DNA of 64,000 bases from a virus (taxonomy: Duplodnaviria > Caudoviricetes), in IMG/VR virus record IMGVR_UViG_3300033121_001571, one strand, 5' to 3'. The notes under the pieces are model-generated. The model worked only from the letters and a program-made list of their open reading frames with translations. It made no database searches and was not told the DNA's origin. This document shows, piece by piece, positions 13,583 to 37,026 of the stretch. Within the stretch, counting starts at the first letter, position 1. Each line of letters opens with the position of its first letter. A program made the position numbers and the translations under genes.

Positions 13583-13870
13583 TTGGATCATGTGATTTCT
13601 AACAAAGAAATTCCAAAGCGTGGAGACACAATCATTATTTCTTCAAATTGTGTAGAACACTGGTACAGTTATTTTATCTTGACAAAGAACCCAACTATGG
13701 TAACACCAGAACACGAAATAGAACACACGGTACACTTAGTACACGATATTCTCATACCTGTGATTGAGATAAAAGTGTTCAAGACTCGTGTTGACGTAGA
13801 CAGATATTCTGTCAAGATAGGAATGTCTTGTTTACACAAAATCAGTGATAACTTTTGGAGTAATTTTTGA
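13583..13870 (+). CDS. array protein
   Basis: PKRGDTIII; C-term KISDNFW. Confidence 0.7.
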   Translation: MDHVISNKEIPKRGDTIIISSNCVEHWYSYFILTKNPTMVTPEHEIEHTVHLVHDILIPVIEIKVFKTRVDVDRYSVKIGMSCLHKISDNFWSNF

Positions 13871-13906
13871 CGTGTAACGCTCTGTGCGCCGTGGTACAGT
13901 CGTGTC

Positions 13907-14182
13907 ATGGATTTAGCACCTGGCGCTGCGCCTTTGGTTGGTGATATACTGTTGCACTATGGAACAGTAGAAATTCGCGTAGTGACCAAGTCAACTTTTT
14001 TACACATCTCTAGTGAACACTTTGTTTTCAACTTGAAGTGCTTCTCTCTAGACGAAAATAGAGATCACTATCTCAGATTTATTTTCCATCCCGAGTTTAC
14101 CGATCGCCGACCGTCACGCTCAAACGCAATTTGGAGAGTTTATTTTAGTCATGGTGATGCTTTCCCATACAGTAAAACTTAA
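13907..14182 (+). CDS. array protein
   Basis: PLVGDILL; leaderless promoter 13872-13900. Confidence 0.75.
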   Translation: MDLAPGAAPLVGDILLHYGTVEIRVVTKSTFLHISSEHFVFNLKCFSLDENRDHYLRFIFHPEFTDRRPSRSNAIWRVYFSHGDAFPYSKT

Positions 14183-14185
14183 AAC

Positions 14186-14539
14186 ATGAAACAAGTAGAC
14201 ATCGATCTGCTGAAACCCGGGAAGATCATCATTTATTCTAGCGCTTATGAAACATCATGGATGACTGCAATGTACGCTATTGTGGTTGATTGTGTATATG
14301 ATGAATCACTAATATATGACCAATATATCAAGATGAAAAAACTCAAACAAGAACAGTGTATTATTGAGTTCATAGTCATCTGTGCAACTGAACAACGACT
14401 CTCAACAAGAACAATACCCCCTTTTAAACACTTCAAAGTGTCATTCCGTCTGTCTGAATCAGACACCAAAGGCAGGGATATCTTTAAGTTAGACTACACG
14501 AAAATCTCCAGATACATTAACAGAAATCCATTCTTATAA
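14186..14539 (+). CDS. array protein
   Basis: LKPGKIII. Confidence 0.75.
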   Translation: MKQVDIDLLKPGKIIIYSSAYETSWMTAMYAIVVDCVYDESLIYDQYIKMKKLKQEQCIIEFIVICATEQRLSTRTIPPFKHFKVSFRLSESDTKGRDIFKLDYTKISRYINRNPFL

Positions 14540-14763
14540 TGTACAAAATCGTCAAAACTGGAGATCTGTTTAATCCCGATGGTCCTTTAAAGGGATTAGT
14601 GCTAAACATCAAATTTCTCCACGCCCGGTGGGTCCCACGGGGAATTACTGGTCCTAGTTTTTACGATGAAACAGAGTACACGTATGAACTTCTAATCTTT
14701 TGGTTTCACAACAAAACAACGTGCACGTGCAACTATTACTGCAACACACCACTTAAGTGTTAA
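14539..14763 (+). CDS. array protein
   Basis: VKTGDLF. Confidence 0.7.
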   Translation: MYKIVKTGDLFNPDGPLKGLVLNIKFLHARWVPRGITGPSFYDETEYTYELLIFWFHNKTTCTCNYYCNTPLKC

Positions 14764-15050
14764 TCAAAGAGACATCTTTGACAACACAAACAAAACAAGG
14801 GGAATCCAACCTCAAGTTAGGTGAAATTATCTATTTTTTGCGTCACGGAAACGTAAAAGAAATCTTATTTGTTCTGTCGATAAAACAGAACAACAACTTC
14901 AACTTTTTAAAAGTGCACGAAGTGATCTGTTACAACGTTTCTAAAAAGAAACAATGCACTTACAACATCACTATCTACTCAAGTTGGGGAAAACCTTTCT
15001 TCACGCTCACAGAAGGTATCAAATTGTTTGATTCTTCAAGCGTATGGTGA
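14757..15050 (+). CDS. array protein
   Basis: LKLGEIIY. Confidence 0.7.
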   Translation: MLIKETSLTTQTKQGESNLKLGEIIYFLRHGNVKEILFVLSIKQNNNFNFLKVHEVICYNVSKKKQCTYNITIYSSWGKPFFTLTEGIKLFDSSSVW

Positions 15051-15142
15051 GCTGAGAACAAGAACACTGCATGAAGTGAATTCTGCTCTGCAACTTGGTA
15101 AGATAGCCATATTCTGCTACGAGTGTACAGAAAGAGAGTGCC

Positions 15143-15442
15143 GTGAGAACAGATCTGTTGCCCGGTGATCTTATCATGATAGAAGATTCCGTTGGTACTG
15201 GAACGACGCCGGCAATTGTGTTTAGCATCAGTGGTCTATTGAGATCTTATCATGAATTTTCTTGGCCGCGCCTAAGAAACGCGCCTCTACCAAACGTCTA
15301 CAACGTCAAGTGTTTTCACGTACAAAAACAGAAGTATTTTACCTTAGAAGTGTATCCTGACTATCTTCTTTGTGAAGACAGTCCAGGAGAGTTTCGGCTG
15401 CCCGCGAGTGCGATCCACCACAGAGAGGAGCTAGAACAGTGA
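15143..15442 (+). CDS. array protein
   Basis: LLPGDLIM; promoter 15076-15104. Confidence 0.75.
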   Translation: MRTDLLPGDLIMIEDSVGTGTTPAIVFSISGLLRSYHEFSWPRLRNAPLPNVYNVKCFHVQKQKYFTLEVYPDYLLCEDSPGEFRLPASAIHHREELEQ

Positions 15443-15726
15443 AAAACGACAAAAACAAGAACGTTGGTCAAATCATCGTTGCAGAAAATGTCAATTCACT
15501 AGTTCTCAAGATCGGTAAAAAGTACATTCCTTTGTGGGGTCGTTACGATCGCTTCAAGCGAACAACTCTTTCAAGACACACGAGGCCAGTAGTCAAACTT
15601 AAGTTGCTGAACCTAGACGCAAATCCTTCAAAAGAATATGTGATTGAAGCGTACCATGATTTTCAGTTTCTGTGGGAAAAGGGAAAATTAGTTCTGCCAG
15701 ATGAATACATTTACAATATTCCCTGA
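15439..15726 (+). CDS. array protein
   Basis: KNVGQIIV; C-term GKLVLP..YIY like 16412. Confidence 0.7.
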   Translation: MKNDKNKNVGQIIVAENVNSLVLKIGKKYIPLWGRYDRFKRTTLSRHTRPVVKLKLLNLDANPSKEYVIEAYHDFQFLWEKGKLVLPDEYIYNIP

Positions 15727-15740
15727 TCAGAGTTTATGTA

Positions 15741-16091
15741 ATGAATTTCCCTCCCAAAGCACTCGTCCAAGTTGGCGACCTTGCCAAGATAGACTGTTGG
15801 CACCACTACAATTTTCGAACTCACGCAGTTGTTCTTGAGATCTTGTATCGAGGTATCACATACCCACGCGAAATACACGCTTGGAACGTAGTGTCTTGCA
15901 GCGTTGAAGAACGTGACATGTTTGTGATCACAACGCAGCACACTCATTTTCAAAAAGAAATAACTGACAACGTGTGGTTGTTTTCTGACAACAACATGTC
16001 CACGCTGTCGGTCGTTCCGCTGGCACGTTACAAATTTGGTAAAGATCCTTACAGAGACCGAGTGCTACACTACAACGCAGAAATACTCTAA
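15741..16091 (+). CDS. array protein
   Basis: VQVGDLAK. Confidence 0.75.
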   Translation: MNFPPKALVQVGDLAKIDCWHHYNFRTHAVVLEILYRGITYPREIHAWNVVSCSVEERDMFVITTQHTHFQKEITDNVWLFSDNNMSTLSVVPLARYKFGKDPYRDRVLHYNAEIL

Positions 16092-16409
16092 GTGTATAAA
16101 GAAATACTTGATCTTCAATCTGGTGAATTCTTACTGCTCTTTGACAGTTGGAGCAACACGCTCTACTACACACTAGTGATCGATCTAAACGAACCGACTG
16201 AAGATTACTGGGCACAGGTACGGAGATCTAGGCGCACTCGCCCAATTGAGAGACTACCAGAAGACAATGTCATCGTGTTGCGCTTGTACAGTTTTCTCCA
16301 CAAGAGCGTGGGGACAGTGGGCGTATTTGACAATTGCGGAGTGCTATCAGACGGAAAGTTTGCAAGACTGTTTAGCACAGACATCCACTACAACTCATTT
16401 GGAGTGTAA
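16092..16409 (+). CDS. array protein
   Basis: LQSGEFLL; C-term IHYNSF. Confidence 0.7.
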   Translation: MYKEILDLQSGEFLLLFDSWSNTLYYTLVIDLNEPTEDYWAQVRRSRRTRPIERLPEDNVIVLRLYSFLHKSVGTVGVFDNCGVLSDGKFARLFSTDIHYNSFGV

Positions 16410-16411
16410 AG

Positions 16412-16744
16412 ATGCTCGATGTCATTGACAAGAAACTCAACCAAGGAGACATCGTTGGTTTCAAACTGTTTGAATATGTCACTCACAGAGGCATCCCAAA
16501 GCGTGAAGTCTTAAGATCTCTAGTGTTGTACATAGAAGAGTGTCCTGTTGGTCTCAAACTAGTCATTGATGGAGAAGAAGATCAAGTGCGAATCCACCTA
16601 TGCAGTCTAGATCCTAGTCGACGTAAGAAATTCTTCCTTGAAGTCAAAAAAGAATACAAGCTCATTCACAAGAACGGTGAACTAACGCTTCCAAACAAGC
16701 ACATCTACTACAACTCTTTCTTTTCAGACAGACGACGTGAATGA
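16412..16744 (+). CDS. array protein
   Basis: LNQGDIVG; C-term IYYNSF. Confidence 0.75.
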   Translation: MLDVIDKKLNQGDIVGFKLFEYVTHRGIPKREVLRSLVLYIEECPVGLKLVIDGEEDQVRIHLCSLDPSRRKKFFLEVKKEYKLIHKNGELTLPNKHIYYNSFFSDRRRE

Positions 16745-17055
16745 TAAAGAAACTCCTTCCAGGTGATCTGGTCATAATTGACAGCCGCAGCACAGCGTTA
16801 ACTGATTTACGCTGCACTGCTCTTGTTATTCACGTGACAACTGAAGTCTCAAATACTCATTTTATGAGAGACACAATCTACTGCTATGGTCTAGACGGTC
16901 ACAAGGTAGTGTTTTCACAGCACCCTGGAACGTACGTTCCTAGTTCTAAGAATCCTGATCTCAGACCAGTTCGTCCAAACAAGTCAGAGATCTGCAAGTT
17001 CTTTGTTGAAAATTTAGCAACGTTCTATAAAACGACACACTGCGACAATGCGTGA
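16741..17055 (+). CDS. array protein
   Basis: LLPGDLVI. Confidence 0.75.
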   Translation: MIKKLLPGDLVIIDSRSTALTDLRCTALVIHVTTEVSNTHFMRDTIYCYGLDGHKVVFSQHPGTYVPSSKNPDLRPVRPNKSEICKFFVENLATFYKTTHCDNA

Positions 17056-17350
17056 AGACGTGTTAAACTCTGGAGCTTTGGTCTGGATCGAAACTTATTA
17101 CCCCACACACACAGATGTTCTAGCGGTTGTTCTTAAAGTTGACACCGACGTGCAGTTCAGCGTCGGTCACTTGGGCAAAATCACGCAGTGGCAACACGGA
17201 GCAGGCGCTGCTGCATTGACCGTGCTCTGTGTCAAAGAGAACACAACAAAACAAATGATATGTTACTTAGATGACATCACCGAAGGGCGACGCAATCTTA
17301 TTGCGTATGGTTTGCATGAGAAATCTTCGTCTTTGATTCAGAGAATCTGA
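17048..17350 (+). CDS. array protein
   Basis: LNSGALVW. Confidence 0.7.
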   Translation: MREDVLNSGALVWIETYYPTHTDVLAVVLKVDTDVQFSVGHLGKITQWQHGAGAAALTVLCVKENTTKQMICYLDDITEGRRNLIAYGLHEKSSSLIQRI

Positions 17351-17655
17351 TGCTGATCCCAGGATCACTGATCATTACAGACGTAGAGTACTATCGCATT
17401 AACAACGAACCCACTCTTGTCTTAGCGCTAGATGATGCACCTGAAGTGCTAAAACCTGGCATGTCGAAATTGGGAGATCATCTCGCTAACAACAAGCGGT
17501 GGCAGTACTCTAATCTCATCACAGTTACGCTGTACTTTCTGTACGACAGAGAGACATTCAAGCTCACAGTACTAAAGTCAATAGAACACAACCGCGTAGA
17601 CAAAATTTCAGCTTATTTGTTTGACGGACGCTACGTTCTTCGATACGAGAGTTAA
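17350..17655 (+). CDS. array protein
   Basis: LIPGSLII; WQYSNLITVTLY shared with next gene. Confidence 0.8.
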   Translation: MLIPGSLIITDVEYYRINNEPTLVLALDDAPEVLKPGMSKLGDHLANNKRWQYSNLITVTLYFLYDRETFKLTVLKSIEHNRVDKISAYLFDGRYVLRYES

Positions 17656-17670
17656 AATCTTGAGTGAGTC

Positions 17671-17955
17671 ATGCTTAAACTCGGTGATTTGGTCAAGATA
17701 GACAATATCGGTCTGAAAGAAGAAGCACTTGTCTTAGCATTGGGCACGGTGCCAGAAAGATTAAAACCATTTGTCTCAAACATCAATTACAGTGAGTGTT
17801 GGCACTTTCCTAACCTCATAACTGCGACACTGTATTGTCTGAACAGCACGAGGACTATCAAGTTGATAGTTAAAAAAACGTTCTTCCCGTACCGTGAAGA
17901 CCCTAACGCGATCGTTCTAGATCACTATAACATTCTGCAGGAGTACGAAGAGTGA
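17671..17955 (+). CDS. array protein
   Basis: LKLGDLVKI; WHFPNLITATLY. Confidence 0.8.
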   Translation: MLKLGDLVKIDNIGLKEEALVLALGTVPERLKPFVSNINYSECWHFPNLITATLYCLNSTRTIKLIVKKTFFPYREDPNAIVLDHYNILQEYEE

Positions 17956-18215
17956 AGAAGGTTGTGGGTGACTCATGCTTAAAACCAGGTGACTTGGTCA
18001 AGATACACAACCTCTTCATAAAAGACACTGCAGTTATCATAGCGTTAAATGACAATGCGCCGAGCGAAACAGTGATATTGAAGTTGTACTGTTTAAATGC
18101 AATGATGAATGCCAGCGTGACAGTAAAACGATCGTCCGCTGCGCGAAGAGACGACAGTGTGATCTTTCTCGCGAGCTCTGACATTCTGACAACAATGTAC
18201 TCATGGTCGCTATAG
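17952..18215 (+). CDS. array protein, paralog of 17671 with frameshifted ends
   Basis: LKPGDLVKI; paralogous C-term GRYSALGKYEE* lies in another frame ending 18240. Confidence 0.65.
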   Translation: MKKVVGDSCLKPGDLVKIHNLFIKDTAVIIALNDNAPSETVILKLYCLNAMMNASVTVKRSSAARRDDSVIFLASSDILTTMYSWSL

Positions 18216-18330
18216 CGCTCTGGGGAAGTACGAAGAGTGAAGATACACATTTCGCGAGCTCGAACGCGAGAAATTTTGACTCTTTGAGACTCAACTCTCT
18301 CTGAGTGCTCTCTGTGCAGTTCTAAGCTAG

Positions 18331-18741
18331 AAGTATAAGCATTTGCTGCTAGTCGAACACTGTGTTCTGCAGTCTTTCTTGACCCAATTGCACACAGATG
18401 TTCAGGAGTGCAAATCTATGCGGAAGTATACCCTTGCACCGCGGTCGAACGCTGAAAATCGACAGCTCTCGAGACACAATTCAACACAGATGCATCTCGT
18501 TGCAATAATGAGCAGAAGTATTAGCTTTTGCTGCTAGTCGAACACTGTGTTGCGCTGTCTCTAAGCACTCAAAGCAGCACAGACGCTCTTGAGAACAAGT
18601 TGTGTCTAAAGTATAAGCTTTTGCTGCTAGCAGAGTCGCTGTGCACTACGCGCAGCACTCGACACTGAGTCGCGCTGAGTTTGTTGACAAAGTATTTTCA
18701 ATTTATTTTCAGTCAAAAAGTATTTTGAATTTATTTTCAGT
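18331..18741. repeat. four ~93-bp-periodic units plus two AT-rich 25-bp direct repeats (candidate replication origin)
   Basis: AAGTAT(A/T)AGC(A/T)TTTGCTGCTAG at 18331, 18516, 18609 and degenerate at 18424; AAAGTATTTT(C/G)AATTTATTTTCAGT at 18689 and 18717. Confidence 0.8.
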
Positions 18742-18971
18742 TGAGTGCACTTTTTTTGCGAAAAGCAGTCCCCTCATCCATACTTAAATTGTGACACTCT
18801 CTGGTGCGCTCTCTCACAAACATATCAGAGCACACAGACGTTATCTAGACCAAATCAAATCATAAACTCCCCCTCGAGTGCACAGAGAGACTCCCCTTCT
18901 GTGCGCTGAGTCACTAGCTAAGTATCCACTCACTCAAGTGAATTGTTCGCTCTTCTGTGGTATGTTGTCTC

Positions 18972-19265
18972 ATGTGGACTTCCGAACTCCTGAGACCGGG
19001 CGACATCATCGTTCACAAGTCAGAAATTGTCATGATCTGGGAGATCGTTGAGACAGATCGTACAAGCAACGTCACCAAACAGACATGCACGATCTGTTCA
19101 CTCACTGGTTACTCCAACCTTCACTGTTTTTTTACCACGAAGTTCATCGATTTTCGGTACACGCCAGACTTTCTCCCGTCTGAAGTGGAACTCCACTCTA
19201 TCAAAGAGGGATCTAGAGTCTTTGTGGTTGGAGTCTATGTTGACGGAGCCATTGTACATGACTGA
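18972..19265 (+). CDS. array protein (EGSRxF subfamily)
   Basis: MWTSELLRPGDIIV; EGSRVF; leaderless promoter 18938-18966. Confidence 0.8.
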   Translation: MWTSELLRPGDIIVHKSEIVMIWEIVETDRTSNVTKQTCTICSLTGYSNLHCFFTTKFIDFRYTPDFLPSEVELHSIKEGSRVFVVGVYVDGAIVHD

Positions 19266-19273
19266 GGCGCGAG

Positions 19274-19561
19274 ATGTGGACTTCTGAACCTTTTAGACCG
19301 GGTGACTTGATCTTCAAAGACGGTTTTTTTGTTGTTATGGTCTTGAAGATCGATAGAACAGAGCTCGCAGACAGACTTAACTTGTCGTACGTGCAAGAGT
19401 GCAGGCTACAACTTCTCACCGGAAGACACGTTCCTGAGATCTCCACGCAAAAGTGTGTTTGTTTTTTGTACTCTCCCCGGTTGCTTGATTGTGAAGCTGA
19501 TATCACGATCCTCCAAGAGGGATCTCGGATCTTTAAGTCCAACTGGAACATAGCGTTTTGA
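19274..19561 (+). CDS. array protein (EGSRxF subfamily)
   Basis: MWTSEPFRPGDLIF; EGSRIF. Confidence 0.8.
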   Translation: MWTSEPFRPGDLIFKDGFFVVMVLKIDRTELADRLNLSYVQECRLQLLTGRHVPEISTQKCVCFLYSPRLLDCEADITILQEGSRIFKSNWNIAF

Positions 19562-19576
19562 GAAGGAGTTAAAACA

Positions 19577-19921
19577 GTGTGGATCACAGAGCCTGCAAGA
19601 GCAAGAGACATTCTGATCAGTGACCAAGTGGATCACGACAGCTATTTCTTTCTCGCCATAGTCTTGAGTGTTGTCCGCGCGGAACTCATGGATAACATCG
19701 CTCTGTACAGACAAGTCTGCAGAGTGCAGGTGTTTGTTCCTGTCTTGAAAGATCATTTATTTCTCCCCGAAAAACTCACGCTCAACGAGTATGTCTGTCA
19801 CATGTGGTACACAGAAGACCCTTCACAGAGAGACAACGTTCGTCACCTTAAACACTTCTATCCGATCTCTGAGACTAAAGAGGGATCTCGGATCTTTAAG
19901 CTCAAGAAACACGGGTCCTGA
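19577..19921 (+). CDS. array protein (EGSRxF subfamily)
   Basis: MWITEPARARDILI; EGSRIF. Confidence 0.8.
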   Translation: MWITEPARARDILISDQVDHDSYFFLAIVLSVVRAELMDNIALYRQVCRVQVFVPVLKDHLFLPEKLTLNEYVCHMWYTEDPSQRDNVRHLKHFYPISETKEGSRIFKLKKHGS

Positions 19922-19936
19922 ACGAGAGAGCAGACA

Positions 19937-20329
19937 GTGTTTGCCCTAGATGAACTCAAAGTCGGAGATGTTCTTGTTTTTTCCCAGCGCGAGAGAGAGC
20001 AGGAGACTCTGCGATCATCCGAGATCCCACAGTCCTGTGTGACTGTGATCTTGAAGATCGTCAGCGCAGAGAGAATCTCATTTCACATGGTGAAACAAAA
20101 GTGCATGCTGCAGATGTTATCCTCTGTCGGAGAATCTGGATCGATCATTTACTTGCCAGATCTCTCGAATCGAACTTTGTCGCCCAGGAACGAATTTTAT
20201 GCTAATTTTGTGTATTACCTCCCAGAGTATTTCACCCTCAGCCCAGAGTTGAGATCACAGATCAAACAATATGTTCATCTCCAGCCCGCGGCTGAGGGAT
20301 CTCGGATCTTTGTCGCAACAAAAAGATGA
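19937..20329 (+). CDS. array protein (EGSRxF subfamily)
   Basis: LKVGDVLV; EGSRIF. Confidence 0.8.
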   Translation: MFALDELKVGDVLVFSQREREQETLRSSEIPQSCVTVILKIVSAERISFHMVKQKCMLQMLSSVGESGSIIYLPDLSNRTLSPRNEFYANFVYYLPEYFTLSPELRSQIKQYVHLQPAAEGSRIFVATKR

Positions 20330-20589
20330 AGAAGACCAGATTGACCCCCGGTGATTTGGTTGTTCTCACGCTTCCTGGAGCCTCATTTATGAGCGGAATC
20401 GCTATCGTCTTGTCCGCAGGCGAACTGTGCACCTTCCGAGGACGTTCTATGATGCAGCAGTGCAAGCTGTTTGTCTTTGAGAAGAACTGTTACGAGTTCA
20501 AGGTCTACTCTCTGTCAGACACTGTCTATCTGCGCCCCCGTGAGCTCGCCGTCGTAGACAACAAGATCTTTAAAATCAAGTTCACATGA
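20326..20589 (+). CDS. array protein
   Basis: LTPGDLVV; KIFKI. Confidence 0.75.
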   Translation: MKKTRLTPGDLVVLTLPGASFMSGIAIVLSAGELCTFRGRSMMQQCKLFVFEKNCYEFKVYSLSDTVYLRPRELAVVDNKIFKIKFT

Positions 20590-20864
20590 GACCCACAAGA
20601 CAACACAAAGATCTCTGTCTTGGTGACATTCTGATTGCTGCGAACATTTCGTACCTTATCATTGAAGTCAAAAAGACATGGATTCCTTCTCGTCCCGAGT
20701 GGACGGGTGTTAAAGGAATGATCATCGTGTCTTCATCCAACGTTCCAGAGTTATCAGTCCTTGCAACAAGGACCATGACTATCGCACCGCAAGACCTAAC
20801 CTTTGAAGCTAAAGACGGAATGTACAAGATCTGGCTCTTGAGACCAAATTACAAACAGAGATGA
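20586..20864 (+). CDS. array protein
   Basis: LCLGDILI; KIWLL. Confidence 0.75.
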   Translation: MRPTRQHKDLCLGDILIAANISYLIIEVKKTWIPSRPEWTGVKGMIIVSSSNVPELSVLATRTMTIAPQDLTFEAKDGMYKIWLLRPNYKQR

Positions 20865-21172
20865 AACACGAACTTGCTCCCGGCGACATCATAATCTATG
20901 TTTACAATCGAACTTACCCAGTTCAGGTTGCAGTTGTCACAAACATCACTGTGCCTGACTTTCCAAATTTGCACAATCACAAAAGTGCTATGGTGCAAGT
21001 TCTGCTTGCGTGCAAGTTAAATGACATGCCCAAAGACAGCGAATGGAATCTAGAAAACAACAGTTATCCAACAGTGAGAAAGTATGTCTTCCCGCTAGAG
21101 TGTCTAGAGTTAAAGTTTATCTTTAAACGCACGAAGATCTTCTTCTATGACCCGGAGTATTACAAAAAGTGA
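20861..21172 (+). CDS. array protein
   Basis: LAPGDIII; KIFFY. Confidence 0.8.
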   Translation: MKHELAPGDIIIYVYNRTYPVQVAVVTNITVPDFPNLHNHKSAMVQVLLACKLNDMPKDSEWNLENNSYPTVRKYVFPLECLELKFIFKRTKIFFYDPEYYKK

Positions 21173-21447
21173 TCTCTAGACTGATAAACCCAGGTGATTT
21201 AATCGTGGAAAGTTATGATAACGTACATCCAGTGCGCGTACTGTTAGTTCTAAACGTAGAATTCACTTTAGGTGGGTACGTGTACATACAATATTTGTTT
21301 CTCTACTCACTTTTCTCTAGTTCTAAATTCAGTTATTCCACGCCTCGAGGTCCTGTTCAGGATACCTTTGTAGTAAGCAATTTGACGTGTAAGACACTGA
21401 CGAAACAACAAAAGATCTTCTTCTATAGCATAGAGGTACTAAAGTGA
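21169..21447 (+). CDS. array protein
   Basis: INPGDLIV; KIFFY. Confidence 0.8.
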   Translation: MISRLINPGDLIVESYDNVHPVRVLLVLNVEFTLGGYVYIQYLFLYSLFSSSKFSYSTPRGPVQDTFVVSNLTCKTLTKQQKIFFYSIEVLK

Positions 21448-21686: not shown

Positions 21687-21691
21687 TTTAC

Positions 21692-22902: not shown

Positions 22903-22910
22903 ACTTCTCA

Positions 22911-23201: not shown

Positions 23202-23207
23202 AGCAAA

Positions 23208-23585: not shown

Positions 23586-23589
23586 CCAA

Positions 23590-23958: not shown

Positions 23959-23964
23959 ACAAAG

Positions 23965-24772: not shown

Positions 24773-24784
24773 CTCTCGATAGAG

Positions 24785-27781: not shown

Positions 27782-27798
27782 TCGTTCAATCTCAGTGA

Positions 27799-28722: not shown

Positions 28723-28782
28723 AACAGTTACTAAACGCTGGTGCAGAGTCCAGAACTTCTGCGTACGAAAGAACACAAAACA

Positions 28783-29094: not shown

Positions 29095-29432
29095 TGACAG
29101 TGATAAAGCCAGGAGATCTGTTACACTTTGGTTATCTTACAGATTCTAACACTGTTAGAAACCTTGCTCAATACACTAGTGACACAAAGATTATTGGTGA
29201 TTACACAATTTTTATTACTTGTCTTGTTCTTAACGTAACACATCGCAAATATGGAAACTTGTCACTCAATGACAGATACGTGATCTGGTACAATCAGTTA
29301 ATTTCAACAGGATATAGCATCGTAGATAGATTGAAATCTAAATCTAAGATTCATCTTGAAGTTCGAAATATTCAAAGAATCAGTGCAAGTGTCTGCATTT
29401 ACAATAACATTGTTGTTGTATACGCTTCATAA
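29094..29432 (+). CDS. array protein
   Basis: IKPGDLLHFGY; VIW. Confidence 0.75.
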   Translation: MTVIKPGDLLHFGYLTDSNTVRNLAQYTSDTKIIGDYTIFITCLVLNVTHRKYGNLSLNDRYVIWYNQLISTGYSIVDRLKSKSKIHLEVRNIQRISASVCIYNNIVVVYAS

Positions 29433-29434
29433 GT

Positions 29435-29848
29435 TTGTACAAACTACTTAGAATTAGAGAGCGTATGGTGAAAGAAAGTTCTCTGTGTGGTACACTCTTT
29501 CTAGTGAAGAATCTTCCCAGTACTGGTAGCTTGTTGCTCTTGGGTGTCAGCAGAGCGAGCAACTTTGCAGAAAAAGTTATCAGAAAAATGCACTGGGGTG
29601 TCACAGAAGTTGGAAGTCTCCTCGTGTTCGCAAGTTTTCTTGTGCAAGAAACAAAACTAACTTCTAGTGCGTATGGACATGATATTCAGCTTAAAACGCT
29701 AGCTGCATTATGGGTCAGTCCAAAAGCTAGAGATATCATTGGAATTTTGCGAGAACACTCACCAGTTTTGACTCTACGCAGCCGCCATCTAAAGAAAACT
29801 CAAGATATGGGTAACGAGTGGACGTACAAAGTTCACATCAAATCGTAA
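29435..29848 (+). CDS. array protein (true start likely downstream)
   Basis: PSTGSLLLLG; ALW. Confidence 0.7.
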   Translation: MYKLLRIRERMVKESSLCGTLFLVKNLPSTGSLLLLGVSRASNFAEKVIRKMHWGVTEVGSLLVFASFLVQETKLTSSAYGHDIQLKTLAALWVSPKARDIIGILREHSPVLTLRSRHLKKTQDMGNEWTYKVHIKS

Positions 29849-29897
29849 ATTCACAAACTTATGGACAGAAACACCAGCGCAGAAAAGTAAATCCGAA

Positions 29898-30212
29898 ATG
29901 GATAATCTAAATCCAGGTACGATTCTGTTAGTTGGTTTTCGTCCAGACAGTTTCTGGATGACAGAAATTTTTCAAACTAATGACTTTGATTTTATAGGAG
30001 ATCATCACGTATTCATGAAAGTCTATGTCTGTAAAAAACCCTGTTCTAGGAAAAATAGAATATTTGTGCGACACTGTCAGTTAATATGGTTGAGTAAATT
30101 CTTTAAAGTAGAGTACCCAAGAACTCAAATACTCGACGCGAGTTTTGATCTAAAAATCAGTAAAAAGATATCTAAAAATATAATTCTGGTAGATTATGAT
30201 TGTCTTGATTGA
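29898..30212 (+). CDS. array protein, close paralog of 28783
   Basis: LNPGTILLVGF; LIW; KISKNIILVDY. Confidence 0.75.
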   Translation: MDNLNPGTILLVGFRPDSFWMTEIFQTNDFDFIGDHHVFMKVYVCKKPCSRKNRIFVRHCQLIWLSKFFKVEYPRTQILDASFDLKISKKISKNIILVDYDCLD

Positions 30213-30439
30213 CTGCTCACGCTGGTGACAGAAAACACACAGTGAAAACAATAAACATTGAAATTGGTTCAAAGTGGAGATGTAGTGACACTCGCGTGCC
30301 TGCTCACGATATCATCGTTACGATCGTTGGGTTTGGAGATTCTCCAGATGGAGAGTTAGTATACTACACTTACCCTGACGGGCAAATATTCCAATGGCTC
30401 AAGAAATACTGGCACTATGACAATGTTCCAGCTGAATAA
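30209..30439 (+). CDS. small SH3-like protein
   Basis: IEIGSKWR..IVTIVG..VYYTY. Confidence 0.6.
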   Translation: MTAHAGDRKHTVKTINIEIGSKWRCSDTRVPAHDIIVTIVGFGDSPDGELVYYTYPDGQIFQWLKKYWHYDNVPAE

Positions 30440-30596
30440 AACAAATAGTGTCTTAAGTCGTTCAACAATATTTCAAATTTCCTACACAAATTTTGTAATT
30501 CTACAAGAGTAGAATTTTGCTTTAGCGAGAAAAGAGCAAACACACGCAACAGTGCACGATCCACGTGCTTAAGGTACATTCTCTTGAGGTGGTAAG

Positions 30597-30971
30597 GTGA
30601 AAAACTTCAAATTTTTGTTCTCTGTGGTTCTTTCGTGCATCTCTGGTTGTTGTCCAGATCTAGAGACTGCGTGTGAAGACATCGCTGTCGCAAGGTGTGA
30701 AAGAGTCTGGAACTGCGGACTCTCTGCACCTCCCGGAACTGTGGAAGAGTGCATCGCTGATTCCAAAGAGAAGTGTATGACCAACACGTCTCTACTCGGC
30801 GTAGAGATCACAGCTTGTGAACTGCAAGCGTGTGCTACTGAGATCTCTGGCGCAGCGTGCAACGTTGAACCTTCTTGTGCTTTTTCTGCGGGTTCTCTCT
30901 TGTCTGGCAGTGCGTGTGAACTGAACACTCAGTGCGCCTCGGGTCACTGCAAAGTGGGTTTCTGTGACTGA
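30597..30971 (+). CDS. Cys-rich secreted or lipoprotein of myxobacterial type
   Basis: Signal peptide with ISGC lipobox-like site; about 15 Cys; C-term GSACELNTQCASGHC..GFC; own promoter 30552-30580. Confidence 0.7.
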   Translation: MKNFKFLFSVVLSCISGCCPDLETACEDIAVARCERVWNCGLSAPPGTVEECIADSKEKCMTNTSLLGVEITACELQACATEISGAACNVEPSCAFSAGSLLSGSACELNTQCASGHCKVGFCD

Positions 30972-30977
30972 CGCTTT

Positions 30978-31244
30978 GTGTTGAAAGTACTTTCAACAGT
31001 GAAACAAGTGCAACCGGGTGATCTAATCGGTCACAAACTATACACTGAAGATCGATTTCACGTTGATGTAGTTTTCAACGTTTCAGTCAAACAAGTTAAA
31101 GACCAGTTCCCACAAGCATTTATCAAGATCTTGTGCACTCAAGATTTGAAAATTACTACTAAGGCGTGTATGTTACATTATCTGAGATATCACCAAGGAA
31201 TTTGGCTTACTGATTCCCATCACGCCTACTTCAATATCATATGA
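30978..31244 (+). CDS. array protein
   Basis: VQPGDLIG. Confidence 0.7.
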   Translation: MLKVLSTVKQVQPGDLIGHKLYTEDRFHVDVVFNVSVKQVKDQFPQAFIKILCTQDLKITTKACMLHYLRYHQGIWLTDSHHAYFNII

Positions 31245-31507
31245 AATATTCAGATGATATTCCAAGTGTTGGAGAGTTATGTCTAATTAGACAAGATGCA
31301 TTTTTTATTGTTATCGATGCTCCCGATGTACGTCAGAACAAAAAGATTACAGACGTTCTTTCAAACGTGTTTCTTGTTGTGTTGTTTTGCGTTAATTCTA
31401 ACAAAACAACGCGCGTAGTCAGTTGTAATTTCTACAAGAATCTCTTCTTAAAGAAGGGATATACGTGGTTCTACCAAACAGACGTAAGAGCTTTCTTACG
31501 AAAATGA
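31241..31507 (+). CDS. array protein
   Basis: PSVGELCL. Confidence 0.7.
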   Translation: MKYSDDIPSVGELCLIRQDAFFIVIDAPDVRQNKKITDVLSNVFLVVLFCVNSNKTTRVVSCNFYKNLFLKKGYTWFYQTDVRAFLRK

Positions 31508-31737
31508 ACAAATCAATACCCAAAACTGGCGACATTGTGATTGTGAAATATGCAACAATATCAGCGAATCTCTTGTTGGAGACAGTTGCTAAAACACATT
31601 CATATATTTTGTGTAAAGTTATCACTGTTCATTTAGACGATGAGCATTCGCCTGTGCCTATAAGAAGATATTTCGATCGCAATAATCTAAAGAAAATATC
31701 AGCAAATTTGTGGTTAGAGTGTTACCCAGACAAATAG
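31504..31737 (+). CDS. array protein
   Basis: PKTGDIVI; KISANLWL. Confidence 0.75.
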   Translation: MNKSIPKTGDIVIVKYATISANLLLETVAKTHSYILCKVITVHLDDEHSPVPIRRYFDRNNLKKISANLWLECYPDK

Positions 31738-31742
31738 CTATA

Positions 31743-31976
31743 GTGAAAAAATTACCCAAAATTGGTGATATATTGATCACAACTTCTAGTTACGGGAAAT
31801 TCTATACACATCTTATAATGTCTTCTGTGCATATGAAGAATTTTTATGACTATACGACAATTTTCCTCTATGAGGAACCAATTTCTTTGATTCACCCAGT
31901 TAGAATATACAAATACTACATTGATTTGCACATAGGAAAAGAAATCGCAAAAGGAGTGTGGATCTTTGTTTTCTGA
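31743..31976 (+). CDS. array protein
   Basis: PKIGDILI; EIAKGVWIF. Confidence 0.75.
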   Translation: MKKLPKIGDILITTSSYGKFYTHLIMSSVHMKNFYDYTTIFLYEEPISLIHPVRIYKYYIDLHIGKEIAKGVWIFVF

Positions 31977-32226
31977 GAAAGACGCTATTGTTTGGAAATA
32001 TCCAGCAGAGAAAACTATAACTCATATTTCATTTGTGATAGCGATATTATCCTGCAGCGATAGTGAAGAACGTGTCTCTCTGTTAACTTTGCACTTTAAT
32101 CACTTGGGTAAAATCGTAAAAACTAGTGTTAGGCATTTTTATGGTCTTTTACTTTGTGACTTCGAGAAAGTGGGTGAAAAGTTGTGGATGTTAAAATCTA
32201 GGGAATCTGATCGTTTATTAGGATAA
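31966..32226 (+). CDS. array protein (degenerate N-terminal motif)
   Basis: C-term KVGEKLWML. Confidence 0.65.
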   Translation: MFSEKDAIVWKYPAEKTITHISFVIAILSCSDSEERVSLLTLHFNHLGKIVKTSVRHFYGLLLCDFEKVGEKLWMLKSRESDRLLG

Positions 32227-32517
32227 ATGACAGTTATGAAACGCCCTAACACAACCTTGCTTCCAAAACTGGGTGATCTAATCTTTTGTGGTTACAAGTC
32301 TCAGTTTGATCAAAATCAACAGTTGCTTTTTGTTTTGGAGAAATACAATATCGTTGAAGTCTACTTAGCTGTTAGCGTTAATCTTGAAGAAAAGTTAACA
32401 GTGATATGCATAGATTCGCTTGGATCTGTGTATAACGGTACAAAGACGTACATTCACCCGTCATACGTGGCCTTACACCAGATCTACTCAAATATATGGA
32501 TAGTAACTTCTGTCTAA
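32227..32517 (+). CDS. array protein
   Basis: PKLGDLIFCGY; QIYSNIWIV. Confidence 0.75.
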   Translation: MTVMKRPNTTLLPKLGDLIFCGYKSQFDQNQQLLFVLEKYNIVEVYLAVSVNLEEKLTVICIDSLGSVYNGTKTYIHPSYVALHQIYSNIWIVTSV

Positions 32518-32605
32518 GAATTAACTACAAAATACGTTGTACAACGCAGAGATAACACTCACAGTGCAAAGCTTCTTGCACCGTGGTATGCATTCTACGC
32601 TGGAG

Positions 32606-32833
32606 ATGACTAAACCTAACACACCCGTAGCGGGAGATTTAGTGCATTATATTGATCATACAGGAGCTATAGCTTCTATTTGGTTAACTTTGCCGCGCGG
32701 CGGGAATATTTCAGGAACGTACTTTTCTTTCAACTTAAATAAGATTATAAGCGTGAGATTTGACTTCACTTTTCAACAATGGAGCTACAATAATCACATT
32801 TGGACTTATTGGACTTACGGTGCACGACTGTGA
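32606..32833 (+). CDS. array protein
   Basis: PVAGDLVH; GGAG RBS; promoter 32564-32592. Confidence 0.7.
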   Translation: MTKPNTPVAGDLVHYIDHTGAIASIWLTLPRGGNISGTYFSFNLNKIISVRFDFTFQQWSYNNHIWTYWTYGARL

Positions 32834-33219
32834 CAAAACTAGTCCAAGATGACTCAAGTTTTTCTATTGGGAGACTTCACTCATTCAAATCAAGACAATT
32901 TCTACACTCACCCTGTTTTCTGAAAACAGAACATAGTTACTCACAATCGAGCTATGTTATTGAAAATTTCAGTAGAGTGACTGTGTTACAACTCAGCGCA
33001 AAAAAAAGTGATGCAGTACACGTGTATTTTCTTGCTGTTGTGGTAAACATTCTTGTTGATACGAGAGTAACTGAAGTTCTCAGTTTTTTGATGAATAAAA
33101 AAGTGCACTGTTTACACCTTGTAAAGAACAATCCTTTACTTGAACACGTGCCAGATCTGATGATCGAGACTGGTACTTCAAGTGCTTATTTCTACAACTG
33201 GCAAAGAGAGCTATTGTGA
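32830..33219 (+). CDS. hypothetical protein in array
   Basis: GTGA coupling. Confidence 0.6.
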   Translation: MTKLVQDDSSFSIGRLHSFKSRQFLHSPCFLKTEHSYSQSSYVIENFSRVTVLQLSAKKSDAVHVYFLAVVVNILVDTRVTEVLSFLMNKKVHCLHLVKNNPLLEHVPDLMIETGTSSAYFYNWQRELL

Positions 33220-33524
33220 ACCCTGGTGAACTATTGATCACGAGAGTTGGGAGGGACATTGGTGCGTTTGTTATTTTAGACGTTTGTTGTGCTAAAGAGC
33301 ATCTCTCTTTGATGAGAGAGTATCAAAACTTGAGTCGCGCACGGCGTATAGAACGTTTTCCGTCCTTAAAAACGTACTTTGAATTTCGAAAAGCACATTC
33401 TGATTTTAGACTTTATCTAAAGCTATTTTCTTCTCTTGAAACAGTAGTACGTAATTGCATATTATTTGATGCTTGTTTCAGCATTGACAAAAACAACGTT
33501 TGGTGGAACGATGCAATCTTGTGA
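33216..33524 (+). CDS. array protein
   Basis: MNPGELLI. Confidence 0.7.
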   Translation: MNPGELLITRVGRDIGAFVILDVCCAKEHLSLMREYQNLSRARRIERFPSLKTYFEFRKAHSDFRLYLKLFSSLETVVRNCILFDACFSIDKNNVWWNDAIL

Positions 33525-33855
33525 TTTTTATTTCATTATGAGAACAAGCGAATTATGTGAGGATGATCATGTTGGAGTGATCGAACAATATCTCATCATC
33601 GAAGTGAACACAAAACCCTCTGTTGTTGCTGCGTTTAATGAATACAGGATCTTACATGAGTACTTATTTAACGTTTCTCTATCAAAATACATCGTAGAAA
33701 ATGCTTGGGAACAAGACAGAAAGAAGTACAGTTCAAGGTTATTTGATATCAACGCAAAATTGATTGACATTCAATCTGGCGTTGTCAGTCAAGCAAATCT
33801 ACACATTCCAACGTTTTTCTTAAATCCAAACATTTGGGTGCTGTGTTACAACTAA
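33511..33855 (+). CDS. hypothetical protein in array
   Basis: C-term LNPNIWVL. Confidence 0.6.
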   Translation: MQSCDFYFIMRTSELCEDDHVGVIEQYLIIEVNTKPSVVAAFNEYRILHEYLFNVSLSKYIVENAWEQDRKKYSSRLFDINAKLIDIQSGVVSQANLHIPTFFLNPNIWVLCYN

Positions 33856-34220
33856 ACAAAGAGTTAGTTTCTAAAAATGGAGCACTCGTTGTTTTCGAGC
33901 TGCAAGAGCCTCCGTACCCACAGTTACTATTCAAAGATGAAATCGATGGAATTGTATTCGGCTCTGGATCAGGTTCCCGTTGGAAGCGCGCAACATTTCT
34001 TACTCTGTCTAGCACCCAGTGTCTTCTTGTCAACCTAGAAATGTTATCTCTTGATCCGCTAGATCTCAAATTGATAAAAACATACTACAACGCTCCTGTT
34101 TTAAACTGGGACGTTACTAAATACACGCTTACATTTTCGTTTTTAACTAACCGTTGTCCTCCGCACATTACACACCTAACTCTAAAAACGAATGACACAT
34201 GCTCGATTCTAATCCTGTAG
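33834..34220 (+). CDS. hypothetical protein
   Basis: ORF in operon; C-term NDTCSILIL like next gene. Confidence 0.6.
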   Translation: MGAVLQLNKELVSKNGALVVFELQEPPYPQLLFKDEIDGIVFGSGSGSRWKRATFLTLSSTQCLLVNLEMLSLDPLDLKLIKTYYNAPVLNWDVTKYTLTFSFLTNRCPPHITHLTLKTNDTCSILIL

Positions 34221-34561
34221 AAGATTCTGTTGTGCTTGTTAACAACGTCCCAGTTGTTCAATTCTGGTTTAACGTTAACAAGCCCGCGTTAAAATCCCGC
34301 GGCCTCGGCGTACTCGTGAAATATTCTAAAAACAACACATATGCTGAACCGACGCAACGCATATTGGTAGTTAAGTTACCCATAAAAGAAGCAATTCATA
34401 TTCAACAAACTTTTCAGAATATGAAAGTAATTGACATAATATGTCATAATTCGATTCTTATTAGAATCAAGCGTGTGTCTGGCTCTGATCACAACTTTAA
34501 CACTATTGAGTTGTCAGAATTTGACAACGAAACAAACACATGTCTATTGACTTTAACGTGA
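34199..34561 (+). CDS. hypothetical protein
   Basis: C-term TNTCLLTLT. Confidence 0.6.
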   Translation: MLDSNPVEDSVVLVNNVPVVQFWFNVNKPALKSRGLGVLVKYSKNNTYAEPTQRILVVKLPIKEAIHIQQTFQNMKVIDIICHNSILIRIKRVSGSDHNFNTIELSEFDNETNTCLLTLT

Positions 34562-34911
34562 TGACAATTGACTGTCTAGCACCCACTGCGTTTCGTGATG
34601 GGACTTTGCTGTTTATTGATTACTTCAAAAATTACAGGCTTACGTTGCTAGTGAGCAACTGTAAACGTAAAAATTTTAGTATTTTTTGCGATGGTGTTGC
34701 AGTACGTTGTAACGACAACACCATTAAAACACCTATGAAGTTCAGTTGTCAGATCAATTTTAACAAAAACAGGAGAGGTTACGCAGTCCCTTACGTTATG
34801 TATCTGTATGTTAATGGTGATGTTCTAGCACACTCTCTTGCAGTTGAAAAGATCACATACCATCCTTCTCCAAACCCAAACGCAGTAATAACACTGCAAC
34901 TTGGTGAGTAA
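34561..34911 (+). CDS. hypothetical protein
   Basis: TGATG coupling. Confidence 0.6.
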   Translation: MTIDCLAPTAFRDGTLLFIDYFKNYRLTLLVSNCKRKNFSIFCDGVAVRCNDNTIKTPMKFSCQINFNKNRRGYAVPYVMYLYVNGDVLAHSLAVEKITYHPSPNPNAVITLQLGE

Positions 34912-34914
34912 CAG

Positions 34915-35946
34915 ATGTTTAATCCTCGTCTTGTAGACAAAGTTTCTTACGTTGTAGCAGACAAGAAAGAAATTGAAACACACTCGTGTGAGTGTTATTC
35001 TACGTACGTTCACGATGCAAGTTCTAAGAACTGCAAGCATTCGGTGGAGTCGTTCACTAACAAAGTGGGTAACACTCATAACGTAATCTGTGACAACGTA
35101 CCATTTCGTGTAAGACTCTTGTGTGTAAATGCAGACAACACCGTCAGCGTCGTGAGTTCAGAAAAATCATATTTGTTAACTCTAGAGATTGACCAGTTTG
35201 TGGCAGCGGTCATCAATGATGGTGTTCAACCAGGAGGTGAGTTCAACTCTGAGTTCGTGTGGGGAATCAACTCTAACAAGATTCAATTAGTAGCAGTTGG
35301 AAGCGATCTACACAAAGATATGTGTAAGAACACAGAAGATCTCAAAAGATCGCTCACAGTAACAAAAGTCAAACCTTCTGACTTGCGTGTGGGAAACATT
35401 TACAACACAAAATCTGGTGAGCAGCGTCTGTATCTAGGAAAAGTGCTTGAAACAAGCAATCAAAAAACTTACTATGCAAGTTATCTCATTCCAAATGAAC
35501 CACGTCATCATCTTTACGATGCAAAAGGATTTCAGTTACAAGCAGAGATGAAACAGAAGTGGCCTTCTCTCTCGTTGAGAGAGAAATTTACTTGGGAAAA
35601 AACGTGTCCCGAAGGTACTAAACTTAGAGACAAATACAACAAAATTTATATTTCTTTCCATTCATCAATGAATTTTGTCTCAGACGCTAATTCAGCTGAC
35701 GTTGATCTTGCTCTTGAGATAAGAGAAAACAAAGACTTGTATTTTACATATGAAACACATAATTGTTACGATCTAGCTGAAGACATTATGCAAATTAAGA
35801 GTCGTCTTTGGTATGATTCTTCTTGTCAGTTCCATTATGGAACCAAAGAATATGAAGCATACCAGAGGGACGTCTACCTCAGAGCACTCGAAGAATACTT
35901 AAACAATAGAAAAAAGTTTAGAGACAGTTTGAAATGGTTTGTATAA
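34915..35946 (+). CDS. hypothetical protein, 343 aa, with internal SH3-like segment (LRVGNIY..LYLG)
   Basis: Long ORF. Confidence 0.8.
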   Translation: MFNPRLVDKVSYVVADKKEIETHSCECYSTYVHDASSKNCKHSVESFTNKVGNTHNVICDNVPFRVRLLCVNADNTVSVVSSEKSYLLTLEIDQFVAAVINDGVQPGGEFNSEFVWGINSNKIQLVAVGSDLHKDMCKNTEDLKRSLTVTKVKPSDLRVGNIYNTKSGEQRLYLGKVLETSNQKTYYASYLIPNEPRHHLYDAKGFQLQAEMKQKWPSLSLREKFTWEKTCPEGTKLRDKYNKIYISFHSSMNFVSDANSADVDLALEIRENKDLYFTYETHNCYDLAEDIMQIKSRLWYDSSCQFHYGTKEYEAYQRDVYLRALEEYLNNRKKFRDSLKWFV

Positions 35947-36191
35947 CCGCAAATGCTAAAGACAAACTACTTTATCTAAAAGACTGTCCCGTCGGGACTG
36001 GGTTTACCAACGACAGTTATGTTGGATTCATCATTAACTTTGACAAAACTTACCACACAACATGTCTTATAATCTCACGTATGAATGATAGTATACACTT
36101 TGAAATTTATGATGAAGGTGCTTACTTCACTAGCGGTACAAAAGTCTTTTATTCTTCAAAATCTCTGAAGTTCATTCATCAGAGAATTTAA
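35934..36191 (+). CDS. array protein (LkDiPvG subfamily)
   Basis: YLKDCPVGTGF. Confidence 0.7.
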   Translation: MVCITANAKDKLLYLKDCPVGTGFTNDSYVGFIINFDKTYHTTCLIISRMNDSIHFEIYDEGAYFTSGTKVFYSSKSLKFIHQRI

Positions 36192-36208
36192 CTAACAAGG
36201 TTTAATTT

Positions 36209-36505
36209 TTGGAAAATTGGGAAAGTAACAATAAAATCTATCTGAAAGATGTTCCACTTGGAGCAATCATAATTGCTCCTCTTTGTTATTTGGTTGTCGT
36301 TAACAAGAAGTCAGGTATGAACTCTGGTATAACATGTATTTGTTTGTGGCAATTAGACAACAAACTATCAGATAAGAGTTTAGATATTGAAACTCATGAC
36401 TATGATGCATCATTTGTGTGGAAAGACAGCGTAAAGTTCATATATCCCTCAAAATCTTCAATAGAACAACTGCAACTTGAAGTATCGCTAGATGAAAGTC
36501 GTTAA
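36209..36505 (+). CDS. array protein (LkDiPvG subfamily)
   Basis: YLKDVPLGAII. Confidence 0.7.
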   Translation: MENWESNNKIYLKDVPLGAIIIAPLCYLVVVNKKSGMNSGITCICLWQLDNKLSDKSLDIETHDYDASFVWKDSVKFIYPSKSSIEQLQLEVSLDESR

Positions 36506-36719
36506 AGTTAAGTTTATAGACATACCTGTTGGTAGCATTGTGTTCTATGATGATATTGGCAAATATAAAGCAATGATACTCATCAAAGTCACAGACAATC
36601 TTTGTGTTAAGTTTAAGTGTGACTCGATTTCAATTGAGTCATTAAGTTCTGCTGTGTTTTTTCTTTACGACAAAGATGTCATAATAATGCCAGACAAACG
36701 AATCATAACAGGTTACTGA
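36492..36719 (+). CDS. array protein (LkDiPvG subfamily)
   Basis: FIDIPVGSIV. Confidence 0.7.
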   Translation: MKVVKVKFIDIPVGSIVFYDDIGKYKAMILIKVTDNLCVKFKCDSISIESLSSAVFFLYDKDVIIMPDKRIITGY

Positions 36720-36720
36720 A

Positions 36721-37026
36721 ATGAAAAACAAAGCGATAGAAGCCAACCAGATTCTGTATTTAACAGAAATTCCAACAGGATCCTTAATCGTCGAAAGAGA
36801 AGAAATTTCTCTAGTGATTTTTCACAACAATGATTTCAGCAAATACTCGTATTGTACTAAGTTGCTCACCGTGTTTCATAAACACTATAATAAATTTGAA
36901 TTTTTGATCAAAACATACAGTTCAAACGTCTATGTGTGCGTCCCGCCAGCGATCATTTTGACCCCTCAGCCCACAGGCCGCCCTCAGAATAAACCAAAGA
37001 AAGCGGCTAATGGCAACAGTGGCTGA
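36721..37026 (+). CDS. array protein (LkDiPvG subfamily)
   Basis: YLTEIPTGSLI. Confidence 0.7.
   Translation: MKNKAIEANQILYLTEIPTGSLIVEREEISLVIFHNNDFSKYSYCTKLLTVFHKHYNKFEFLIKTYSSNVYVCVPPAIILTPQPTGRPQNKPKKAANGNSG

Follow-up and report, generated by a model that had tools for sequence, protein, structure and literature searches.

Organization of the array

The 64,000-nucleotide stretch of DNA analysed here (the window; IMG/VR record IMGVR_UViG_3300033121_001571, Caudoviricetes) comes from the 284-kb genome of an uncultured jumbo phage. Between positions 13583 and 37026, about 8% of that genome, its plus strand carries a tandem array of 72 open reading frames (ORFs) of at least 60 amino acids (aa), tiled almost without gaps; two further ORFs beyond 37026 bring the count up to position 38165 to 74. 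Neighbouring frames overlap by 4 or 1 nt at 24 of 72 junctions and lie within 10 nt of each other at 51 of 72. The run of about 68 consecutive small plus-strand genes proposed earlier from the DNA letters alone (hereafter the sequence-only reading) is thus real.

A sister strain, 95.9% identical over 7.5 kb, keeps 23 of 23 orthologous frames open, and its two indels within genes measure 6 and 3 nt. The ratio of nonsynonymous to synonymous polymorphism (pN/pS) is 0.50 in frame versus 0.61 and 0.84 in the other two frames, with some genes near 1. Because the ORFs tile one strand, all 23 frames are open, the indels span 3 and 6 nt and pN/pS is lower in frame, we regard the ORFs as real genes; by this measure constraint is present but relaxed. 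Divergence between the two strains is patchy (chi-square 527, 29 degrees of freedom), and unchanged genes sit directly beside genes with many changes, which suggests cassette-scale recombination between strains.

The most diverged stretch between the strains pairs window positions 30209-30596 with L001:3433-3858 (63 mismatches in 250 nt and several non-triplet indels). A 76-aa ORF with a TTG start (30209-30439) has no gene call in the sister strain and may not be a gene.

A shared N-terminal motif and kinship at the profile level

Most of the predicted proteins begin with the same short hydrophobic strand. An N-terminal motif of the form x-G-[DE/NST]-hydrophobic x3, at a score of at least 6, occurs in 60 of the 74 ORFs, versus 5.3 expected from shuffled sequences, and the strict form G[DE][ILVM][ILV][ILVFM] occurs in 30 versus 0.29 expected. 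The sequence-only reading had estimated that about 60 genes start with G-[DE]-hydrophobic, and that estimate holds. The motif sits within a few residues of the likely gene start. Its Gly and Asp codons match the general codon usage of the array genes, and this synonymous variation means that conservation acts on the protein and not on the DNA.

Pairwise comparison by phmmer links only 13 pairs in 7 small clusters, hence the use of profiles. With 814 shuffled or reversed decoys as a control, profile iteration grew from 5 to 17 members with zero decoys at E ≤ 1e-3, and to 24 members with one decoy at 1e-2; inclusion at an empirical p ≤ 0.01 extends the profile to 53 of the 74 ORFs. When each gene was left out together with its close paralogs, 39 genes still beat every decoy, 46 were recovered at p ≤ 0.01 and 49 at p ≤ 0.05. 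Outside a core of 22-24 genes, detectable similarity is mostly confined to the N-terminal strand. On our reading of these alignments there is a full-length family of 22-24 genes at 21.4-32.5 kb (the A-type genes; Table 1), with another 25-35 genes sharing at least the first strand.

The central tryptophan and C-terminal hairpin that had been noted in the array are found in the genes of the 21.4-32.5 kb region, where the hairpin reads K-I-S-x-N, whereas the endings KIFFY and EGSRIF belong to small subfamilies. In the family alignment a glycine is the sole invariant column; the remaining consensus consists of a proline, an aspartate, hydrophobic residues and one tryptophan, and conserved polar residues are lacking apart from the D/E of the motif. 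Given that only the glycine is invariant, the family bears no sign of an active site, and the conserved catalytic Cys and His of NlpC/P60 or permuted papain-like amidases are not found in its alignment. Mean column identity among paralogs is 15-19%. This fits the suggestion of one scaffold with variable surfaces, in that only the glycine and core hydrophobic positions are conserved. Isoelectric points (pI) are mostly basic, with a median of 8.7 and 32 of 53 members above pI 8, and nine members are acidic.

Similarity is arranged along the array, as had been anticipated from the apparent subfamilies of neighbours. Adjacent genes make up 7 of the 13 phmmer-linked pairs, and the farther apart two genes lie, the lower is their identity, which declines from 19% to 15.7% (Spearman -0.215, p 9e-16). 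Since similarity decays in this way and linked pairs are mostly adjacent, the comparison supports growth of the array by tandem duplication followed by deep divergence.

Predicted fold

Two of about 70 proteins were modelled with AlphaFold2, one with a downstream alignment (A1) and one with an upstream alignment (A2); the two alignments do not overlap and have no sequence in common. The model of gene 29898-30209 with A1 is all-beta with three short helices (predicted local distance difference test 89, predicted template-modelling (TM) score 0.81). It includes the extra C-terminal three-strand piece of the A-type proteins, which ends in the K-I-S-x-N hairpin. For gene 16741-17052 with A2, a four-strand N-terminal domain (residues 1-64) is predicted with confidence and the tail with low confidence.

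The second model resembles domain I of EfpL and EF-P (Z 6.4 and 5.9, root-mean-square deviation about 2.2 Å over 57-59 residues; for EfpL, the best match, 2.3 Å over 59 residues) and further matches eIF5A, a designed SH3 domain, CarD (Z 5.2) and many Tudor domains; Foldseek gives these matches a probability of 0.97-0.99 but E values of at least 0.26 (about 0.3). The A1 model finds PRC barrel, EF-P and RimM, none of them above Z 4.3, and a PRC barrel in the ESM Atlas at TM 0.45-0.56. A feature search of the Atlas was of no use, and the Atlas model of the protein is of poor quality. EF-P domain I, eIF5A, the UvrD/PcrA Tudor domain and a designed SH3 domain appear in the neighbour lists of both models.

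We take the common element to be a predicted SH3-like small barrel of which the conserved motif is strand 1, a resemblance at the level of fold only. The SH3/KOW/Tudor type of barrel that had been guessed from the motif is thereby supported by two models from independent alignments. In their predicted topology and their first strand, G-D-hydrophobic, the array proteins agree with the class of EF-P/eIF5A domain I, KOW, Tudor and PRC barrels; the A-type members differ from that class in their three-strand C-terminal addition and short helices, and their match to it is weak (Z 4.3).

Promoter motif and expression layout

All six positions at which the sequence-only reading had placed internal early-type promoters share the pattern GTGNAN-N15-KGTA. 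The pattern is found at 17 sites in the window versus 3.1 expected, always oriented like the local genes, and 16 of the 17 fall at 1-39 kb, the region of small genes (for example 885-913 and 8648-8676); many more occur on the contigs L008 and L014. Taken together, the window and three loci contain 44 unique sites, 42 of which were retained in a first extraction that included upstream flank, and yield the consensus gAGTGAAC-N15-GGTAGAAT. The six positions therefore belong to a genuine, enriched motif, although not one that matches the standard sigma-70 promoter, and the proposed division of the array into sub-operons is supported by this motif.

An ATG stands exactly 6 nt after the -10-like hexamer at 21 of the 44 unique sites, from which we infer leaderless mRNA for the first gene of a unit (e.g. 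13907, 18972). This spacing, the lack of Shine-Dalgarno sequences and the overlaps of 4 nt jointly suggest coupled translation of the genes that follow. The array would be transcribed as about eight sub-operons from this promoter, which seems to be specific to the phage group and to drive operons that are leaderless and translationally coupled: a leader would often be missing from the first gene of a sub-operon, and the downstream genes, mostly without Shine-Dalgarno sequences and with 4- or 1-nt overlaps, could be translated by termination-reinitiation. Two sites bear on gene starts. A start at GTG 29504 would place the motif near the N-terminus of gene 29435-29848, and ATG 32606 is likely the true start of ORF 32537-32833.

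A second array in the same lineage

The lineage is also represented by a metagenome contig whose overlap with the window is 99.7% identical. On it lies a second array, oppositely oriented and roughly 19-30 kb upstream of where the window starts. Of its 39 ORFs (55-100 aa), 28 reach a motif score of at least 6; the array continues on a further contig, and a variant strain has it too. A profile built from the second array alone recovers 22 window ORFs above the 1% decoy level, and with the motif masked it still places 13 window ORFs above the 5% level, versus 3.2 expected. Many second-array genes barely exceed the length of a single barrel.

Relatives and precedents

Megablast found nothing to match the array among 50,697 phage records, the GroEL of the window shares at most 39% identity with anything, and a scan of IMG/VR with this GroEL gave nothing; as far as these comparisons reach, the phage is without a close relative among deposited phages. 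Identical or near-identical DNA is present in several public metagenomes (two contigs, L019 and L020, match the window at 100% identity and contribute no divergence), and because of this matching DNA we consider the array to belong to a circulating phage and not to be an assembly artefact. A scan of metagenome contigs with an anchor gene led to four loci, in which the DNA downstream was too short to be of use.

An exhaustive profile search of 1.84 billion protein representatives returned 21 matches; all matches of this search and of a word-indexed protein search come from the phage's own lineage, save two spurious repeat proteins. The two exceptions, NlpC/P60 repeat proteins, were rejected because they cover only profile positions 4-33, that is, the G-D strand. 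In Pfam, hmmscan with 23 + 21 members at E ≤ 1 found no KOW, EFP_N, CarD_TRCF_RID, PRC, LSM, SH3_15 or DUF7244, and the sole SH3-type hit was SH3_CYT4 in one member (E 0.081). Searches with family members gave no match in PHROG, and a sequence-profile search of the PDB gave nothing relevant.

Two precedents bear on whether the array is a new kind of system. The early GoF/MotB.1/Frd.2 proteins of phage T4 begin with a five-stranded SH3/LSm-like barrel at the N-terminus, to which a C-terminal part that varies is joined, are mutually unrecognisable by BLAST and were of unknown function in 2025 (PMC12152347). Both array models share this build, with the barrel first and a variable tail, and here too the tails differ between array blocks: once the motif is removed, the proteins can be aligned only within the A-type block of about 22 genes. 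The T4 set, however, has three dispersed members, whereas here one array has at least 46-53 and a second array exists besides, and the A2 profile has no match at E ≤ 1 in the six-frame translation of the whole T4 genome. The jumbo phages G and 121Q carry tandem arrays of more than 30 genes (Hua et al. 2017, PMC5646251), in which one copy is said to be "very similar" to another. These resemble the present array as long jumbo-phage arrays ascribed to duplication, and the figure of more than 30 copies is matched here by 46-53 profile-supported genes; they differ from it in that the copies here are 15-19% identical. Neither the A1 nor the A2 profile has a convincing match in the genomes of G and 121Q (best E 0.01 and 0.006). 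To describe the array as an unreported system, as the sequence-only reading had done, was therefore too strong. Because the barrel-plus-tail build is known from T4 and long tandem arrays from phages G and 121Q, the array is an orphan and much larger variant of a recurring, unexplained kind and not a new category.

Interpretation and alternative explanations

The explanation that we prefer, with the chances about evenly balanced, is that the array is a lineage-specific, tandem-duplicated family of SH3-like, non-enzymatic binders that serves as an accessory repertoire against targets of the host or of rival elements. Repeated tandem duplication would have built the multigene family. Each protein, of 65-135 aa, would devote its first ~60 residues to a five-stranded SH3-like barrel of the type seen in KOW, Tudor or EF-P domain I, with the P-G-D-hydrophobic motif as strand 1, and would then continue into a C-terminal extension specific to its subfamily. 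With their divergent surfaces, these binding modules could target variable macromolecules of the host, or of rival elements, in takeover or counter-defence, and the repertoire could be renewed as genes duplicate, diverge fast and recombine between strains in cassette-sized pieces.

The proteins are most likely non-enzymatic because only the glycine and the core hydrophobic positions, the D/E of the motif aside, are conserved. A repertoire of binders against host or rival-element targets is the most likely function, held with a confidence at or a little short of even; it is favoured by the lack of conserved polar residues, a fold typical of binding modules, the number of copies, an evolution that is relaxed and patchy, and the setting in an accessory region. 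A bolder version seems to us doubtful: that the two arrays together contain about 90-100 diverged SH3-like copies, around a tenth of the genome, as a standing and recombining repertoire of binders, each of which neutralises a different variant of a host defence or host factor, and all of which are expressed from dedicated leaderless sub-operons. The phage would then have an equivalent of the multigene families known from large eukaryotic viruses.

Several results weigh against the preferred explanation. With the motif, profile iteration joins most of the genes (53 of 74, 46 of them at a leave-one-out p ≤ 0.01), but once the motif strand is cut off, mutual recognition is limited to about 22 genes, almost all of them at 22.9-31.9 kb. 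The downstream A1 and upstream A2 profiles are aligned by hhalign over 14 N-terminal columns, at 65% probability. A single origin of all ~60 genes rests on the short motif and two predicted structures, and these two structures stand for some 70 proteins. Foldseek finds no match for either model in the PDB or BFVD at E ≤ 0.001, and by the standards of the tools themselves the resemblance to known structures counts as weak (Z < 8). A pN/pS of 0.5 marks relaxed constraint and would fit dispensable or decaying copies as well. A scan for the sigma-70 consensus (at least 4 of 6 matches per hexamer) showed no enrichment, with 43 sites versus 46 expected, and missed the phage motif; since the promoter fails these criteria and such sites are not enriched, early expression is an assumption.

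The main rival holds that the proteins are RNA- or ribosome-directed regulators in the style of Sm/Hfq, KOW or EF-P domain I, which would bind RNA of the host or phage, or the ribosome, and so redirect translation or RNA stability, the copies representing different RNA specificities, and we think it unlikely. It draws on the nearest structural neighbours (EF-P/EfpL, eIF5A, the RimM PRC barrel, LSm and the Pelota N-domain), on the mildly basic character of the family (median pI 8.7) and on T4 GoF, which is similarly built and has a mutant that alters mRNA stability (PMC12152347). However, conserved basic or aromatic surface positions are absent, nine members are acidic and no sequence match to the LSM, KOW, EFP_N or PRC profiles was found; SH3-like barrels are, besides, as often protein binders as RNA binders.

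Genome filler is a less probable account. The extra DNA from runaway tandem duplication would be tolerated, or needed, by a jumbo capsid with head-full packaging, and most copies would be nearly neutral, drifting and individually without function. Tandem duplication has been proposed for the expansion of jumbo genomes (Hua et al., PMC5646251), and the relaxed constraint (pN/pS 0.50, some genes near 1) and extremely low paralog identity would agree with it. Neutral decay is nevertheless incompatible with frames that are all open at 15-19% paralog identity, and the motif is retained at the protein level despite synonymous codon variation; the tight packing, the conserved promoters and the maintenance of the second array in several strains also argue against this account.

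We consider it improbable that the array consists of several unrelated small families, a core of about 22 genes plus look-alikes, with a convergent N-terminal strand used for docking, folding or as a signal. The restriction of the motif-masked search to about 22 genes, the 14-column hhalign alignment and the capture of the same short motif in unrelated NlpC/P60 repeat proteins are what one would expect under such convergence. Yet two models from independent alignments make the motif strand 1 of the same type of barrel, the genes are alike in length, strand, packing and neighbour-wise decay of similarity, and the motif-masked second-array profile still enriches window genes (13 versus 3.2 expected).

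CarD-type domains likewise start with a G-D-hydrophobic strand, and CarD (Z 5.2) and the C-terminal Tudor domains of UvrD/PcrA are among the neighbours of the two models, but modulators that bind RNA polymerase in the manner of the CarD/Mfd/UvrD Tudor-like domains and retune host transcription are very improbable, as these scores are no better than those of many other SH3-like barrels, Pfam CarD_TRCF_RID has no hit at E ≤ 1 in 44 members, and there is no evident reason for 60-100 copies.

Small accessory proteins of the SH3/LSm-like type are a recurrent feature of phage genomes, and the array is the largest example known to us of this functionally unexplained phage habit. It provides by far the largest natural series of them, dozens of variants of one scaffold in strains that differ gene by gene, suited to asking which positions vary, whether the variation tracks host defences and what the scaffold binds. 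It also bears on the growth of jumbo genomes, as a case of tandem duplication kept under selection.

Other features of the array and its surroundings

The blocks of the array, its non-member genes, the promoter-like sites and the second array are listed in Table 1. Among the four ORFs at 35934-37026, only 36209-36505 is a solid member (leave-one-out p 0.0012).

Table 1. Features of the tandem array, positions in the window unless a contig is named
Feature	Position	Strand	Remarks
Whole tandem array	13583-37026	+	72 ORFs, 60-137 aa, one of 343 aa
Upstream block	13583-21447	+	About 23 ORFs, G-D motif in nearly all; profile/alignment A2 and model
Subfamilies of the upstream block	15439/16412; 17350-18215; 18972-20329 (EGSRIF ending); 20861-21447 (KIFFY ending)	+	
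Core A-type block	21444-32517	+	22-24 genes with full-length kinship, from the G-D strand through a central L-W strand to the K-I-S-x-N hairpin at the C-terminus
Seven ORFs whose family signal is weak or absent	32537-34911	+	Membership unproven; only 33216-33524 joined the profile (leave-one-out p 0.11)
343-aa protein near the array end	34915-35946	+	Non-member; matches PHROG 2475 (unknown function)
Four ORFs with variant motif	35934-37026	+	P-x-G-[ST]-hydrophobic about 15-20 residues in; three joined the profile
80-aa ORF with motif (AGDLVF)	37923-38165	+	Past the array end, after a minus-strand phosphoribosyltransferase gene
Interloper	30597-30971	+	Non-member; 124-aa acidic protein, 16 Cys, lipobox-like ISGC near the N-terminus
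Non-coding gap dividing the array	18216-18956	.	741 nt; terminator-like hairpin at 18250-18271
Promoter-like site	13872-13900	+	Leaderless arrangement, the -10-like hexamer being followed after 6 nt by the ATG of gene 13907
Promoter-like site	15076-15104	+	Leader of about 38 nt to GTG 15143
Promoter-like site	18938-18966	+	ATG 18972, 5 nt after the -10-like hexamer
Promoter-like site	24744-24772	+	ATG 24785, 12 nt downstream
Promoter-like site, absent from the sequence-only reading	29468-29496	+	GTG 29504, 7 nt downstream
Promoter-like site before the Cys-rich lipoprotein-like gene	30552-30580	+	Leader with GAGGTGG
Promoter-like site	32564-32592	+	ATG 32606, 13 nt downstream
Second array	L025:5400-15700 and L026	opposite	About 30-40 shorter G-D-motif genes, 57-100 aa; contig walk

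The Cys-rich interloper has its own promoter-like site and a Shine-Dalgarno-like leader. Its pN/pS against a related strain is 0.08, and by this estimate the gene is under strong purifying selection amid relaxed neighbours. This lipoprotein-like protein aside, no signal peptide or membrane segment is evident by eye in the array proteins. The non-coding gap contains a 107-nt direct repeat in two copies (18329-18435 and 18514-18620, 70% identical) and a 25-nt repeat, also in two copies (96% identical); a search of Rfam with the gap gave no match.

Outside the array, the window encodes GroEL, an RNA ligase, an exonuclease, AAA ATPases and a phosphoribosyltransferase. A 150-aa gene on the minus strand (4278-4730), together with flanking genes of 65 aa, forms a cassette that occurs in another genomic context in a variant strain (L008:9796-10697) and looks mobile; the 150-aa protein is listed in 54 blocks of a public collection. 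Two divergently oriented, Lys/Ala/Glu-rich, paralog-like ORFs at 920-1549 (plus strand) and 7350-8015 (minus strand) are located in patches of 56-60% guanine plus cytosine (GC) in a genome of about 40% GC, and each lies directly downstream of a site with the promoter motif (885 and 8135).

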